From the IMG/VR virus record IMGVR_UViG_3300024259_001623: a stretch of DNA of 64,000 bases. One strand, given 5' to 3'. Both the position numbers and the translations under genes were made by a program. Positions 42,298 through 62,842 of the stretch are shown here, piece by piece. Source of the DNA: a virus. Taxonomy: Duplodnaviria > Caudoviricetes. How positions within the stretch are numbered: the stretch's first letter is position 1; every line of letters starts with the position of its first letter. Under the pieces are notes generated by a model. It saw nothing but the letters and a program-made list of their open reading frames with translations, was not told the origin of the DNA and ran no database searches.

Positions 42298-44748
42298 TTA
42301 TCTTCGTCTTCTAAAAGCTCTTGGCACTGCACTCTCTGTGCCAAATCCCATTGGATCAGAAGAACCTTCTGACAAATTTGTAAAATCTTTACTTTTTATT
42401 TCATCTAGCGCTTTATAAAAATGATCAGAATTTAAAATAGCAATATCGTTGTCATCTGTATCTCCTGACTGTATAGCTAAAAACACTGCTGTTATGCATA
42501 AATCTTTAATATAAGCTCCACTCATCTCTTCCTTATCTTCATCAATTTCGGCAGCTATACCCTCAAAATCCACATCCTTATGGACTTGGAATTTTTCTGT
42601 GAACTTTTTCAACATTTTTGCAACTTGCTTAGAATTCGGGTTATCAATATTAATAATCCTATCAAATCTGCCTGGTCTATTCTTAATAGCATTCTCAACT
42701 TTTTCTGCCAAATTAGTTGTAGCCACAGTCACAACGCTTTTAAAACTTTCTATACCATCCATTTTGTTCATTAAATCAATAACAAACCAATCATTTCCAT
42801 CTCCGCGATCCTGTGCTATATAATCAATATCTTCCAATATTAACAATGTAGGAGCTAAGTCTTTCGCCATGTCGCAAATCTTTGCCACATCTCCTTGGTT
42901 TCGTATATGAGAAGGCAAAACATATAAAACTGTAACTGACAATTCTTTAGCTAAAACCTTGCAGATCATGGTATTATGAGTTATAATATAATTATTAGTT
43001 ATATATAAATGATCTTCACTTTCAAGTAATATACACTGAGACTGTTCTTTCCCTTTAAGATTTATAGAAGACAAAATCCTTACTGTCAAATATTTTGTGC
43101 GTTCTTTTACTTTATTTATTTTTCTCTTTAAACGGAAAAGCCTATATGCATCTTTTATGCTAATCCTTACACTAAAACTATTTAATCCGTTTTTTATTTC
43201 TCCGTTATACGAATACTTTACATTCTTTTTCTCCTTAATCGTGGCGATGCCGCCCAAAGATTGCACAATCTCCTTAACTCCTTCAGCAAGACACTTCGAA
43301 GTCGTATAAAAAACTGGCATTCCTGTTTTTTCGACACTTCCATCAGAATCCATTAACCCTTGTAAGATAGATATCCTACGATCAACTGAATTATAAATAT
43401 AATCTTTTGGAATAAATTTATCTTGACTTTTTACTTTCCAAAGACCTAGATCTTTTATCTTTTTAACCAGAGAGTTAGACTTTCCCCTACTACCAGAAGA
43501 AATCCTAAAATCATAATCGCTAATTTCGCTTAGTGACAAATTATCCACAGAAACTAAATCGCTAATTATACTTAGTATCTCACTATCAGCAGTAGAAAAA
43601 TTCAGCCCATTAGAACAAAAACATCCATCTCCCAATAAAAACCCTAACAAATAAGGATCAATAGAAATTTTTCTTTTTTCAAAAGAAACGGGTTCTGGCA
43701 CCCTAATTCTAATATTCCTATATTCTCCAACTCTAACTCTATCTATTAAGTATTTTGTATCTACAATTTTAGGACTACCACCGGAAGACTTATCACTAAC
43801 CTCCCAAAGATGGTCAATACAGCATTCGACTTCATCTCCATTTTTAAATTTAAGCGTATATATTTCCTTTTCTCCCTGTGGATATACTCCTACAACCTTA
43901 GAACTTCCACCTGAAGCATTACAAACCATGTCTCCAATTTTTATCTCACCCATTGTTTTAATACCGTCTGGTGTATAAACAAAAGAACTTAGAGGTTGAG
44001 CTTTCCCCGTTCCGGGAGGCCCCGTCAATATAATTCCTCTTTTAAGATTGATTCCATTCTTTTCCAAGATGTCAGCTTTGTCAAATAGATCTTTGACATT
44101 TCTTTGTATAACATCCTTGGCTTCTTTAGATATAATTATATCTTCCCAACATATATTTTCATCCAAATCCAAAAAAGCACAGTCTGGATTTATACTTTGA
44201 CCTTTATAGAAATTATTCTCAATTGAGTAGGTTTTCCAATCCTCAAACACATCTTTAACACAACTTGAGAATACATCAAAATAATAAAAACCATCATAGG
44301 CGTCTTTTGTTATCTTTACGCATACTCTGTCTTTAGCAGTTTTATTTTCAAAAAACAAAAATGCATTTAAATATCCATCTACGAACTTACCCTTTTCATA
44401 TTCAATTTGATATTTTTTAGCCTTAGTTATGAACTCTCCATCATGAATACTAAAAGATCTAACAAAACTAAATCCAATAGTCTCAAAGAAATCTTTCATA
44501 GCAAATTGCATGATATTATTTACATAACTAGGAATCCCTGAAGTAAAAGTAGAAAAGTCTTTTTTATTAAAAAAGTCTTTTATAACAAGATCTTCTAGAA
44601 CATTATTATAAGAAGCCTTATTGAATTGATCTAAATTGCATTCTGCCAATTTAGTTGTTTTATCTTCTGGACTAAGATTTCTACTTTCTGAACTGTACGC
44701 TTTCTCGATTGAACTAATTGAACTAATTGAACTAATTGTTTTTTTCAT
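42298..44748 (-). CDS. AAA+ ATPase (FtsH/Cdc48-like module) with an intein
   Basis: RGIILTGPPGTGK/(intein)/TMICK, LLILEDID, TTN, RPGRFD. Confidence 0.9.
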   Translation of the reverse strand: MKKTISSISSISSIEKAYSSESRNLSPEDKTTKLAECNLDQFNKASYNNVLEDLVIKDFFNKKDFSTFTSGIPSYVNNIMQFAMKDFFETIGFSFVRSFSIHDGEFITKAKKYQIEYEKGKFVDGYLNAFLFFENKTAKDRVCVKITKDAYDGFYYFDVFSSCVKDVFEDWKTYSIENNFYKGQSINPDCAFLDLDENICWEDIIISKEAKDVIQRNVKDLFDKADILEKNGINLKRGIILTGPPGTGKAQPLSSFVYTPDGIKTMGEIKIGDMVCNASGGSSKVVGVYPQGEKEIYTLKFKNGDEVECCIDHLWEVSDKSSGGSPKIVDTKYLIDRVRVGEYRNIRIRVPEPVSFEKRKISIDPYLLGFLLGDGCFCSNGLNFSTADSEILSIISDLVSVDNLSLSEISDYDFRISSGSRGKSNSLVKKIKDLGLWKVKSQDKFIPKDYIYNSVDRRISILQGLMDSDGSVEKTGMPVFYTTSKCLAEGVKEIVQSLGGIATIKEKKNVKYSYNGEIKNGLNSFSVRISIKDAYRLFRLKRKINKVKERTKYLTVRILSSINLKGKEQSQCILLESEDHLYITNNYIITHNTMICKVLAKELSVTVLYVLPSHIRNQGDVAKICDMAKDLAPTLLILEDIDYIAQDRGDGNDWFVIDLMNKMDGIESFKSVVTVATTNLAEKVENAIKNRPGRFDRIINIDNPNSKQVAKMLKKFTEKFQVHKDVDFEGIAAEIDEDKEEMSGAYIKDLCITAVFLAIQSGDTDDNDIAILNSDHFYKALDEIKSKDFTNLSEGSSDPMGFGTESAVPRAFRRRR
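42973..44001 (-). mobile_element. Class 3 intein with LAGLIDADG endonuclease in the Walker A motif (343 aa)
   Basis: Begins with Ala (GK/AQPL) and ends THN/T. WCT signature: CIDHLW, QCI and ITHN. LAGLIDADG motifs LLGFLLGDG and LQGLMDSDG. Confidence 0.9.
44708..44738 (-). repeat. 9-bp tandem repeat x3 encoding ISSISSISS
   Basis: attgaacta x3 plus attg on the plus strand. Confidence 0.9.
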
Positions 44749-44775
44749 ATTTACCTTTCTTCGTTTACCCTTCTT

Positions 44776-45465
44776 CTATTGAAATAATTTTTTTACGAAA
44801 TATTCTCTTCCTTTAGAGAATTTTTCTATATCGAACATCTCAAACGCTTCATCTAGAGTTATTGTATTTCTAAAAACGTCACTCTGTGAACAAGAAACCA
44901 GAATTCTAGATTTGTCCGCTTTCTTCATCCACCTTAGTCCTTTTTCACAAGCCTTTAATGTATGAGTCTTATGATCCTTATTAACACCATAAAAATCAGT
45001 TTTACCTTCCCTATAAGAACAAGTGCATCCCATCAAAATAATCGGATCACAACCTAAAACATGAGCCAATTGATAAGCAAGAGGACCAGAACTTCCTCTG
45101 CCTGCCAAGACAGAAGGATTATTAGTCAACTTATAATCACCATATAAAAGCTTATAATGATATGCCATTTTCCTAGGATCAGAAACATCTCTCGAAAACA
45201 ATATAGATTCTAATTTCGACAATCTCTTTCTACAGTCATAGTATAATTCTATATCTTGCCACAGTAGTATAGTTGGGTCTAATCTGAAAAATGCTCTGTT
45301 AATTCCTATAGTAAAGCAATCCTTCAATTTATAAACTGGGTAATCATCCAAATGAGGAGCATTGCCTAAAATAAAACAAGGTACTCCATTGAGTTTATTT
45401 TTCCAATTTCGTACCTTGTTTCGATCTTTAATTAACGAATGTCTTAGTTTTCTATATATAGCCAT
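44776..45465 (-). CDS. DUF115/Maf-like (GT-like) protein
   Basis: CFILGNAPHL, TIGINRA, LAHVLGCDPIILMGC. Confidence 0.65.
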   Translation of the reverse strand: MAIYRKLRHSLIKDRNKVRNWKNKLNGVPCFILGNAPHLDDYPVYKLKDCFTIGINRAFFRLDPTILLWQDIELYYDCRKRLSKLESILFSRDVSDPRKMAYHYKLLYGDYKLTNNPSVLAGRGSSGPLAYQLAHVLGCDPIILMGCTCSYREGKTDFYGVNKDHKTHTLKACEKGLRWMKKADKSRILVSCSQSDVFRNTITLDEAFEMFDIEKFSKGREYFVKKLFQ

Positions 45466-53744: not shown

Positions 53745-53827
53745 CGGAAGGAGAGGGAGTCGAACCCTCAAGGCCGTAGCTCGTCCGATTTCAAGTCGGG
53801 TGCAATCTCCAATTTGCTTGCCCTTCC
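53745..53827 (-). tRNA. tRNA-Ser(UGA)
   Basis: Loop CT-TGA-AA, long variable arm, GGTTCGACTCC T-arm, G discriminator, no CCA. Confidence 0.92.
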
Positions 53828-53847
53828 TTTTTAAAACAATTAGTTCG

Positions 53848-54033
53848 TTACATCCACCGCACTGGAACGGCTCTACCGCGAAGCACATGCCATGACGCCT
53901 TGATTCGCCATCTCAACCACCCAGCATTCCCTGGCTTAACGTTTTCCGGCTTTGCTAGATGCCAGACCCCATTATCTTTATCATGAGATATTGGTTGGTC
54001 AGATAATTCATTCATAGTATAAATAGTTCTCAT
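53848..54033 (-). CDS. 61-aa Trp-rich ORF embedded in the tRNA operon
   Basis: SD AGAGGAG, ATG at 54033: MRTIYTMNELSDQPISHDKDNGVWHLAKPENVKPGNAGWLRWRIKASWHVLRGRAVPVRWM. Confidence 0.75.
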   Translation of the reverse strand: MRTIYTMNELSDQPISHDKDNGVWHLAKPENVKPGNAGWLRWRIKASWHVLRGRAVPVRWM

Positions 54034-54056
54034 AATCTCTCCTCTACATTTCTTAT

Positions 54057-54145
54057 CGGATAGGACAGGGATCGAACCTGCATTACTCAAAAAGTAAACA
54101 GCCTTTCGAAGACTGCACGACCTACCAGTAGTCGTCACGCTATCC
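54057..54145 (-). tRNA. tRNA-Ser(CGA)
   Basis: Stem CAGTC/GGCTG, loop TT-CGA-AA, long variable arm, no CCA. Confidence 0.9.
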
Positions 54146-54150
54146 AAAAA

Positions 54151-54239
54151 CGGAAACGACAGGATTCGAACCTGTGGGACCGTTTGCACGGCCCGGCTGC
54201 TTTCCAAGCAACTGCGATCAACCACTCTGCCACGTTTCC
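54151..54239 (-). tRNA. tRNA-Ser(GGA)
   Basis: Stem GTTGC/GCAGC, loop TT-GGA-AA, long variable arm, no CCA. Confidence 0.92.
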
Positions 54240-54245
54240 AAATAA

Positions 54246-54320
54246 AGACGAAGGTGGGATTCGAACCCACGCATAGTAGTTTTGCAGACTACCGTGTTAG
54301 CCAGACTTCACCACTTCGTC
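54246..54320 (-). tRNA. tRNA-Cys(GCA)
   Basis: Loop CT-GCA-AA, U discriminator, no CCA. Confidence 0.92.
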
Positions 54321-54326
54321 ATTTAA

Positions 54327-54410
54327 TACCGGGAACGAGAGTCGAACTCGTACGCCCTTAATGGGCAATGGGTTTTAAACCCATCGTGTCTGCCATTCCA
54401 CCATCCCAGC
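54327..54410 (-). tRNA. tRNA-Leu(UAA)
   Basis: Stem ATGGG/CCCAT, loop TT-TAA-AA, A discriminator, no CCA. Confidence 0.92.
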
Positions 54411-54418
54411 TTATATAA

Positions 54419-54501
54419 TACCTCTAACAGGAGTCGAACCTGTAAGCCCTTTCGAGCAGCGGCTTTTGAAACCACCGTGTTTGCCGTTTCACCATAGAGG
54501 C
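54419..54501 (-). tRNA. tRNA-Leu(CAA)
   Basis: Stem GTGGT/GCCGC, loop TT-CAA-AA, A discriminator, no CCA. Confidence 0.9.
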
Positions 54502-54507
54502 ATTTAA

Positions 54508-54591
54508 CGCCTCTCTACAGGAATCGAACCTGCCTATTCTTACCATGACAGCCTTAGATGCCGTCACAGCAAAAATATTCCCCATAGAGGC
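54508..54591 (-). ncRNA. Non-canonical tRNA-like RNA with a CUA (amber) anticodon-type loop
   Basis: Same 5' 10 nt as tRNA-Leu(CAA), intact T-arm GCAGG-TTCGATT-CCTGT, 7-10 bp stem closing loop AT-CTA-AG, degenerate D-arm, one extra nt in the 3' acceptor strand. Confidence 0.7.
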
Positions 54592-54603
54592 ATATTTTTA
54601 TCT

Positions 54604-54679
54604 AAGGAAAGAAAATAATTTTGAAACAGAATTGGTTATTTATCTTTCCTTGTAATATTTTACAAAGACAAAGATAAAC
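54604..54679 (-). promoter_or_regulatory. Attenuator-like alternative hairpins (1:2 versus 2:3)
   Basis: Segment 2 (54636-54655) pairs with segment 1 (54660-54679; about 18 bp, 2-nt bulge) or with segment 3 (54604-54618; 15 bp, 1-nt bulge). Confidence 0.75.
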
Positions 54680-54734
54680 ACGATAACAAGCAGGATGAAA
54701 CGATTGAAAAACTAGTTGTGTTGAAGTTAGTCAT
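54660..54734 (-). CDS. 24-aa leader peptide MTNFNTTSFSIVSSCLLSCLSLSL
   Basis: SD AAGGA 7 nt before ATG. Codons 13-24 are TCA TCC TGC TTG TTA TCG TGT TTA TCT TTG TCT TTG. Confidence 0.8.
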   Translation of the reverse strand: MTNFNTTSFSIVSSCLLSCLSLSL

Positions 54735-54759: not shown

Positions 54760-54788
54760 ATTATAGGCAACGATTCTGAAAAACGCAA
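54760..54788 (-). promoter_or_regulatory. sigma70-type promoter TTGCGT-N17-TATAAT for the tRNA operon
   Basis: Exact 17-nt spacer, about 26 nt upstream of the leader ATG. Confidence 0.85.
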
Positions 54789-55847: not shown

Positions 55848-56579
55848 TTATACATCTTCTGTGACTTCCTCTTCATCATTATATAATTTACACTTTACTG
55901 ATTTTCCAACAGACCTCATTGTAGCGTACTTAGCCAATCCTTCTGTTTGTTTAGCAAACGCACCTTGAGTGTCAGCAAGCCCTTTATATGCAATAGTATT
56001 ACTTGCAGGGATATTCAACTGACTAGCGATCTTTTGAACATCATGATTAACGCCTATATAAGAAAAAGTCCACTGATCTGTATCATCCTGCAATTCAGCA
56101 ATAATTTTAGCGACACTACTCTTGTCATATTCTTTAGAAGAATTATCATAACCGTCTGTAAAGATAGTCACAACAACCTTAACTTCTTCGTTATCTGACA
56201 TTTCTTTTTTCAATTCTTCTTTGATCTTCATAACATTATGACCAACAGCGTCACACATAGCAGTCATTCCGCCTGGAGCATATCCGTCTACATTGATTTC
56301 TTCTAACTTGTCGATTTTCTCTTTCCATAAAGCAACTTCAATTTTATCATTAAAATAAATCAAAGAAATAAGGAAATCTTGATCTTCAAATTCTCCATTT
56401 AATCTTTTGATTGTCTGTACGTTCTCATTAAACCCATCTACTGCAACTCCCCTAACAGCATGCATCGATCCACTCTTATCTAAAATCATCATATAATGAG
56501 TGACCTTTTTGTTCTTCTTACTAATCTTCTTTTTCTTTGGAGGGTTATCCCCAAGATCCAAAAACTTATTCTCTTTCAT
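55848..56579 (-). CDS. vWA domain protein
   Basis: MIDAS motif ILDKSGSM, GMTAMCDA, IFTDGYDN. Confidence 0.9.
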   Translation of the reverse strand: MKENKFLDLGDNPPKKKKISKKNKKVTHYMMILDKSGSMHAVRGVAVDGFNENVQTIKRLNGEFEDQDFLISLIYFNDKIEVALWKEKIDKLEEINVDGYAPGGMTAMCDAVGHNVMKIKEELKKEMSDNEEVKVVVTIFTDGYDNSSKEYDKSSVAKIIAELQDDTDQWTFSYIGVNHDVQKIASQLNIPASNTIAYKGLADTQGAFAKQTEGLAKYATMRSVGKSVKCKLYNDEEEVTEDV

Positions 56580-62805: not shown

Positions 62806-62813
62806 TGTGATAT

Positions 62814-62842
62814 ATTATACACAATATATTTATTAAACGCAA
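62814..62842 (-). promoter_or_regulatory. sigma70-type promoter TTGCGT-N17-TATAAT
   Basis: Same -35 and -10 hexamers as the promoter of the tRNA operon. Confidence 0.8.

Follow-up and report, generated by a model that had tools for sequence, protein, structure and literature searches.

A remodelled, probably non-decoding tRNA-like element at the head of a tRNA operon in a giant marine phage

Animal mitochondria contain tRNAs that lack a D-arm, such as tRNA-Ser(AGY), in which an anticodon stem of about 5-6 bp and short connectors are accommodated by adapted mitochondrial machinery. In phages, the species 1 and 2 RNAs of T4 and RNA1-3 of T5, which we take to be close to the element described here, are presumably non-decoding RNAs that lie among tRNA genes and are co-transcribed with them; they are longer than this element. 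The t-elements of plant mitochondria form non-canonical cloverleaves that keep an arm with the motif GGTTCRANYCC. Their ends, mapped by experiment, are generated by RNase P and RNase Z, and the RNAs receive C residues that are not encoded (Forner et al. 2007, PMC1920247). Recoded phages, whose genomes contain in-frame TAG codons in large number, encode amber suppressor tRNAs that fold as cloverleaves and are picked up by tRNA finders (Borges et al., 10.1101/2021.08.26.457843; Peters et al., PMC9523058); odd-shaped phage suppressor tRNAs are suspected to escape detection (10.1101/2021.08.26.457843).

Here we consider an 84-nt tRNA-derived element (54508-54591, minus strand), recognised by sequence and fold and running from G1 at 54591 to a discriminator-like G84 at 54508. 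By the window we mean the whole 64-kb stretch of DNA that was analysed. Plant mitochondrial t-elements are the nearest analogues: like them, the element is tRNA-derived, keeps a GGTTCRANYCC T-arm together with an acceptor helix, and would sit inside a longer transcript next to an mRNA. Unlike them, it belongs to a phage and not an organelle, is known here from sequence alone, and is placed between a leader mini-gene and real tRNAs, the next of which would give an RNase P site anyway. With the phage amber suppressor tRNAs it shares a phage origin, a CUA in a seven-base loop and a low-G+C genome, but its cloverleaf fails and no in-frame TAG in the window needs it. As in tRNA-Ser(AGY), there is an acceptor helix and a T-arm without a D-arm; the 18-bp helix sets the element apart, and the mitochondrial mode of ARAGORN makes no call of it with a CUA loop. 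Canonical tRNA, phage amber suppressor, tRNA-Pyl and intrinsic terminator were each rejected as identities on a tested defining feature.

The window has 34% G+C and codes densely in code 11, nearly all of it on the minus strand, and the phage proteins that it encodes include an SNF2-type helicase, a ribonucleotide reductase and a terminase/ATPase-like protein. Since proteins encoded next to the element also occur on seawater-metagenome contigs of up to 434,625 bp, the source is a giant marine phage. A terminator found by the terminator scan (54843-54812, minus strand) closes the genes upstream of the tRNA operon. The operon promoter, read from the sequence (TTGCGT, a 17-nt spacer and TATAAT; 54760-54788, minus strand), has identical hexamers and spacing in a diverged relative, L010. 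It is missing from the consensus promoter scan at 54788-54760 because TTGCGT agrees with TTGACA at only three of six bases. The same TTGCGT-17-TATAAT arrangement stands at 62806-62835 (minus strand), before tRNA-Leu(UAG); the operon copy is the one kept in L010.

Downstream of the promoter lies a leader mini-gene of 24 codons (MTNFNTTSFSIVSSCLLSCLSLSL, stop TAA; 54660-54734, minus strand), an ORF that L010 also keeps, followed on the same strand by leader hairpins between mini-gene and element. The last 16 leader bases, CCUUAGAU plus AAAAAUAU (54592-54607, minus strand), make up two 8-nt blocks complementary to the element. The element had been placed first in the operon, which is correct in that it is the first tRNA-shaped unit, although the promoter and the 24-codon mini-gene precede it. 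The next unit, 6 nt (UUAAAU) further on, is tRNA-Leu(CAA) (54419-54501, minus strand), after which come Leu(UAA), Cys(GCA), Ser(GGA), Ser(CGA), a 61-aa ORF and Ser(UGA). This ORF (53848-54033, minus strand) has a good ribosome-binding site, occupies the 228-nt gap between tRNA-Ser(CGA) and tRNA-Ser(UGA), and is a gene call on several population contigs. From the operon promoter to the tRNAs, the terminator scan reports no terminator-like site.

The letters quoted in the sequence-only reading of this DNA can all be read at 54591-54508 (minus strand). In the minimum-energy fold an acceptor helix of 6 bp leads through a linker of 8 nt into an 18-bp helix with the loop AUCUAAG, and a single G joins this to a T-arm. 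The 5' acceptor strand GCCUCU (54586-54591, minus strand) pairs with AGAGGC (54514-54509) at pair probabilities of 0.89-1.0; the six pairs are followed by an A-G mismatch, and the 3' acceptor strand AGAGAGGC (54509-54516, minus strand) is 8 nt long, with one extra AG relative to tRNA-Leu(CAA). The 1-72 pair is G-C in the element and G-U in tRNA-Leu(CAA). The long helix and its loop (54535-54577, minus strand) join positions 15-32 with 40-57 without a single mismatch, through 13 Watson-Crick and five G-U pairs, most with pair probabilities of at least 0.99; the loop lies at 54559-54553 and its CUA triplet, as read from the sequence, at 54557-54555 (minus strand). The description of a U33-CUA-A37 loop on a 7-10 bp stem thus keeps its seven-base loop, A-U-C-U-A-A-G, and loses its stem, which has 18 bp. 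The remodelled D-arm described alongside it does not exist as an arm at all, the bases so named being the outer 5' strand of the 18-bp helix. The T-arm, GCAGG-UUCGAUU-CCUGU (54517-54533, minus strand), contains the GGTTCRANYCC motif as GGTTCGATTCC at 54530-54520, alongside the 6-bp acceptor helix. Its pair probability in the computed ensemble is low, at 0.36, since a rod-like alternative, in which UUCCU (69-73) pairs with GGGGA (positions 10-14), competes with it.

The element folds at -37.3 kcal/mol, compared with -21.0 +/- 2.7 for its shuffles (z = -6.06), and none of 200 shuffles folds as well. Its hairpin folds unequally on the two strands, at -21.3 kcal/mol (minus) and -4.5 kcal/mol (plus); a palindrome kept at the DNA level would be symmetric, so the pairing belongs to the transcript of the tRNA strand only. 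Given this asymmetry and the five G-U pairs, the folding models indicate that the 18-bp helix is an RNA-level feature of the tRNA strand. By our estimate, which assumes a perfect Watson-Crick start, five pairing-preserving changes would be improbable under neutral decay, at about 0.3 each and about 0.002 overall.

The proposed descent from a tRNA is borne out by a Leu-type repeat at the 5' end and by the likeness of the T-arm. The stretch common to the element and tRNA-Leu(CAA), GCCTCTATGG, is part of a full repeat of 12 nt, ATGCCTCTATGG, whose two copies start 90 nt apart, that is, one unit plus its spacer. The T-arm had been called canonical, and GCAGG-TTCGATT-CCTGT indeed agrees with the other T-arms of the operon at 15-16 of 17 bases. 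The interior resembles none of the tRNAs in the window to any detectable degree, and BLAST of the element against the window finds no second copy of it. What is left of a tRNA is therefore confined to the first ~15 bases, the T-arm and the 3' acceptor strand; where the D-arm, anticodon arm and variable arm would be, there stand ~42 bases forming the one 18-bp helix.

The unit nevertheless fits the pattern of the operon. Its body of 84 nt compares with 84 nt in tRNA-Leu(UAA) and 83 nt in tRNA-Leu(CAA), and its flanks are those of the operon, with U at -1 and UU after the last base; the UUAAAU spacer is identical after the element and after tRNA-Leu(UAA). UU stands directly 3' of five of the six operon tRNAs (53745-54501, minus strand) as well as of the element, and CCA is left unencoded in all six and in the element, which suggests RNase Z-type 3' processing and post-transcriptional addition of CCA. 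The intact helix, the unit size and the flanks speak for an RNA that is treated in the same way as the neighbouring units, more than for a scar without meaning, but demonstrate no function.

Could such a unit read amber codons? At its default threshold ARAGORN is silent on the element, and with -ps80 (80% threshold) it calls it as tRNA-Pyl(cta). The model behind this call has an 8-pair acceptor with the A-G mismatch, a 3-pair D-stem with no GG in the D-loop, a 14-nt variable region with a feeble variable arm, and no real D-arm. In tRNA-Pyl the cloverleaf is compact, the D-arm is real, the anticodon stem has 6 bp and the variable loop 3 nt, and pyl genes accompany the tRNA. We reject this identity, as the label reflects only the cta triplet, the D-arm is not real and the variable region has 14 nt. 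Covariance-model scoring gave no match to the Rfam tRNA model RF00005 (gathering score 29 bits) at E<=10, whether 1.3 kb or only 98 nt was searched; the sole tRNA-type match in Rfam joins 16 nt of the T-arm to the tRNA-Sec model at 12.1 bits, and the hairpin draws chance matches to microRNA-precursor models. The best D-stem that can be forced has three pairs including a mismatch, on a loop, AAUAUUUUUG, that lacks GG, and the forced cloverleaf reaches -13.6 kcal/mol, some 24 kcal/mol short of the -37.3 kcal/mol obtained with the 18-bp helix. The loop AUCUAAG does carry U33 and A37 on its 18-bp stem; its flanks are A32 and G38, whereas all operon tRNAs have U32 and A38. In a normal tRNA about ten stacked layers (D-stem, 26-44 pair and anticodon stem) lead from the junction to the anticodon loop. 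By this geometry the CUA loop would be set off from the junction by about 8 bp more than in a tRNA, with no elbow of D-loop and T-loop; so placed, it should be unable to meet a codon with the 3' end in the peptidyl-transferase centre, or to serve as an amber-reading adaptor on the ribosome, and we consider amber reading by the element very unlikely. A T-box-like arrangement, in which CUA would be a Leu codon presented to the phage tRNA-Leu(UAG), was also dropped, there being no Rfam T-box match and no T-box architecture.

Nor does the coding sequence of the window call for amber reading. That its genes read normally in code 11, as had been stated, agrees with the 95% of the window covered by ORFs of at least 100 aa. 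The 55 non-overlapping long ORFs end in TAA (40), TGA (8) or TAG (7). In six of the seven genes that end in TAG, read-through adds just 2-11 codons; behind the seventh (44776-45465, minus strand) the next gene follows in the same frame after 27 nt, with its own ribosome-binding site and ATG. A read-through fusion of 44776-45465 with 42298-44748 was dropped, since the second gene (816 aa, an ATPase) has this ribosome-binding site and ATG of its own; the junction itself (44748-44778, minus strand) resembles ordinary gene spacing, not programmed read-through. We found no gene in the 64-kb window that needs amber read-through. The sequence-only reading was thus right that this is no routine suppressor, as the element fails the Rfam tRNA model, lacks a D-arm and meets no need for amber read-through in the window. 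The role of conditional suppressor, which it had held out as an option, finds no support in a unit whose cloverleaf fails and in a window where no in-frame TAG needs it.

Comparison with relatives places the element in a labile part of the operon. Contigs of the same population from other samples are identical to the window across the whole region. The diverged relative (L010/L011), whose upstream-gene protein is 79% identical, keeps in L010 the terminator, both promoter hexamers with their 17-nt spacing and the leader mini-gene, there an ORF of 25 codons that shares an identical block of 29 nt, TCATCCTGCTTGTTATCGTGTTTATCTTT, with the window. The likeness continues through ...GGATAAAAATAC GCCTCTATGG and ceases from the next base. 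There L010 reads TGGAATGGCAGA TTATAGAGAG TGGTGGAATGGCAGAC and passes into non-tRNA sequence, beyond which lies an ORF whose transposase-type helix-turn-helix is weak and falls below the Pfam cut-offs. Of the element, L010 has only the 5' acceptor strand GCCUCU; no hairpin or CUA loop follows GCCTCTATGG there, a T-arm motif and an ARAGORN call are lacking throughout, and the alternative hairpin of the window at 54599-54571 is not shared either. A closer relative, X19, a 201-nt contig found by comparing the window with the DNA contigs of four runs, matches 54582-54725 with five substitutions and five small indels. For its last 54 nt, starting directly after GCCTCTATGG, a likeness of 80% is reached neither with the element nor with tRNA-Leu(CAA). 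Conservation in relatives, which had been proposed as a check, thus breaks down: the hairpin, CUA loop and T-arm are absent past GCCTCTATGG in L010, and X19 departs at the same base. This is largely the picture of decay, with no conserved loop, that was named in advance as speaking against such a role, on the evidence of just two relatives, of which L010 is itself rearranged. The element body would accordingly appear confined to the lineage of the window among these two relatives, although its absence there is no proof that it lacks a function here, and the readings as a regulatory tRNA mimic or a nuclease decoy do not seem to be favoured by the relatives.

Within L010, the stretch 829-1062 at the operon head contains two incomplete 5' ends of Leu-type tRNAs with a direct repeat of 15 nt, TGGTGGAATGGCAGA, as well as the helix-turn-helix ORF and a 12-bp hairpin in which the strand GCCUCUAUGG pairs with ...UAUAGAGAG. 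It has the look of a tRNA gene scarred by a mobile element or by recombination. The 3' acceptor strand in the window carries an unusual UAGAGAG, and because of this and the GCCUCUAUGG/UAUAGAGAG hairpin in L010, an acceptor-type helix directly after the leader may be a feature common to the two lineages. The operon head is a rearrangement hot spot.

Wider searches added little to this comparison. In IMG/VR, neither three neighbouring proteins used as queries nor four DNA patterns (hairpin core, leader-element junction, leader codon block, and T-arm with 3' end) retrieved any relative; no relatives appeared among JGI metagenome contigs with a leader 20-mer and an alignment of the 101-aa neighbour, and nothing appeared in GTDB genomes with the T-arm/3' end pattern. 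A hairpin 19-mer has one match in GTDB, in a Lachnospiraceae MAG without the surrounding hairpin or T-arm, and was discarded, as about four chance matches are expected. The phage GenBank collection yields generic tRNA matches only. Among the sequencing runs listed as containing this stretch there is no RNA run. Protein searches with the 193-aa, 101-aa and 203-aa neighbours return only themselves, the L010/L011 relative at 79% and another at 48%, whose contig is too short to inform on the element; the members of their protein clusters comprise only contigs identical in the region.

What the tRNA-derived parts do not account for is the complementarity between the leader and the element. Of the two adjacent blocks at the leader end, CCUUAGAU is complementary to the loop of the element with its closing pair (AUCUAAGG), and AAAAAUAU to the 5' base of its helix (AUAUUUUU). 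A loop block of this kind arises in 23 of 20000 dinucleotide-preserving leader shuffles (about 0.001), a figure that overstates its weight, the complementarity having been spotted after inspection of the sequence; 8-mer complements between leader and element number three, as against a shuffle mean of 0.31 (P = 0.024). Pairing of leader and loop would form a transient structure of -17.6 kcal/mol in the growing transcript, overtaken once the 3' strand of the helix is made. L010 keeps 14 of the 16 leader-end bases, with no complementary partner downstream. The 16-nt complementarity could be a leftover of the origin of the interior or a short-lived folding or processing checkpoint, the latter being improbable in our estimation; being beyond chance, it keeps a regulatory reading alive.

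The second block also takes part in the hairpin that had been described as terminator-like, AAAAAUAU-G-CCUC-UAU-GGGG-A-AUAUUUUU (54571-54599, minus strand). The inverted repeat is real, but at -6.9 kcal/mol the hairpin is weak, is absent from the terminator scan, and cannot compete with the main fold. As an intrinsic terminator or attenuator, for which we looked for a G+C-rich stem of at least five pairs followed by a run of U, the hairpin at 54599-54571 was rejected: its G+C core has four pairs on a 3-nt loop, and its U residues lie inside the stem. Elsewhere in the leader, the codon block CCUGCUUGUU (54683-54692) pairs over 10 bp, two of them G-U, with AAUAGGCAGG (54529-54538, minus strand), which spans the helix base and T-stem of the element; the minimum-energy fold of the entire leader includes this pairing. 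It was dropped as being at chance level, about 0.7 such pairings being expected by our estimate.

How, then, is the element best explained? With moderate confidence, we regard it as a lineage-specific remodelled copy of a Leu-type tRNA that is co-transcribed with its neighbours, probably trimmed by tRNA-end enzymes, and non-decoding. A Leu-type tRNA gene would have been copied, and its D-arm, anticodon arm and variable arm replaced by the ~42-base, 18-bp helix. The operon promoter would then give rise to one transcript with the leader mini-gene, the element and the six tRNAs. In a tRNA, the acceptor/T-arm half is what bacterial RNase P and the CCA-adding enzyme recognise, and the element may have retained just this half, the part seen by tRNA-end enzymes. 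Going by its shape alone, RNase P would be expected to cut before G1 and RNase Z or exonucleases to trim after G84, and CCA might be added. The product would be a three-way-junction RNA whose CUA loop, judging from the geometry, could not decode. Any further role, for instance as a stable decoy or as a boundary that separates leader and tRNAs, would be conjectural. Several observations sit uneasily with this account. The modelled T-arm pair probability of 0.36 would count against it, as do U33 and A37 in the loop against its non-decoding part; a helix that contains five G-U pairs yet no mismatch points to selection for something outside this account, and the 16-nt leader complementarity is left unexplained.

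The same locus might instead be the dead scar of a first tRNA gene broken by a mobile element or recombination, with no role as an RNA and with a tRNA look and CUA loop that are accidental. Such a scar would suit the tRNA fragments, 15-nt direct repeat and weak transposase-type helix-turn-helix ORF at the same position in L010, the absence of the element from both relatives, an interior that resembles no tRNA, and population contigs that are all identical and give no sign of constraint either way. Random filler, however, would not be expected to fold into an 18-bp helix free of mismatches (z = -6.06); the five G-U pairs and the values of -21.3 and -4.5 kcal/mol on the two strands argue for pairing kept in RNA, not for a DNA palindrome. 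The acceptor pairing is also intact, with G-C at 1-72 where tRNA-Leu(CAA) has G-U, and an 84-nt body within 1 nt of the neighbouring Leu tRNAs has flanks that follow the operon pattern. On balance we think a mere scar unlikely. A genuine if odd-shaped amber-reading tRNA, D-armless with an extended anticodon stem and acting as a conditional suppressor, strikes us as exceedingly improbable. The seven-base loop with U33, CUA and A37, the intact acceptor helix and T-loop and the relaxed-threshold tRNA(cta) call of ARAGORN speak for it, as do a low-G+C, TAA-preferring genome of the kind thought to give rise to recoding and the proposal that odd-shaped phage suppressor tRNAs go undetected (10.1101/2021.08.26.457843). 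It has to contend with the missing Rfam match, D-arm and GG for an elbow, a loop held on 18 bp instead of some ten helical layers from the junction, a cloverleaf ~24 kcal/mol less stable, A32/G38 in place of the U32/A38 of all operon tRNAs, TAG as an ordinary stop in 7 of 55 genes with no extension pointing to a dependent gene, and, again, absence from both relatives.

A further alternative is a cis-acting switch, in which the leader end competes with the tRNA-like fold and translation of the leader decides on folding of the first unit, its cleavage and maturation of the precursor. We hold this to be quite unlikely. The two adjacent 8-nt complementary blocks, the recurrence of the loop block in just 23 of 20000 leader shuffles and an alternative structure able to form at -17.6 kcal/mol in the growing transcript speak for it, and the leader is conserved, its codons matching the tRNAs of the operon one for one. 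The alternative can be only short-lived, however, since transcription reaches the 3' strand of the tRNA-like fold just 10-17 nt further on and this fold is the more stable by about 20 kcal/mol; the hairpin is no credible terminator, and the complementarity was noticed post hoc, so the shuffle figure is easily overweighted. Since L010 retains the leader and 14 of its 16 end bases with nothing complementary downstream, the leader works or persists without the element. The specific proposal that the element is the output device of a codon-matched leader, in which ribosome traffic would govern the adoption of an RNase P-competent shape and so the timing of Ser, Leu and Cys tRNA release, appears decidedly improbable; were it true, it would amount to translation-sensed, processing-level control of a phage tRNA operon.

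If the reading as a remodelled, non-decoding tRNA copy is true, the element is a degenerate tRNA look-alike of a megaphage, and a CUA loop in a tRNA-like fold gives no ground for annotating an amber suppressor or inferring recoding. The RNA-level 18-bp helix and the complementarity at the leader end are the only features able to lift it above a relic.

On one population contig, L012 (ENA ERZ27250149), at 1558-2289, the counterpart of a 243-aa gene of the window (55848-56579) is split into pieces of 103 aa and 139 aa, on a contig whose tRNA-operon head is identical to that of the window.
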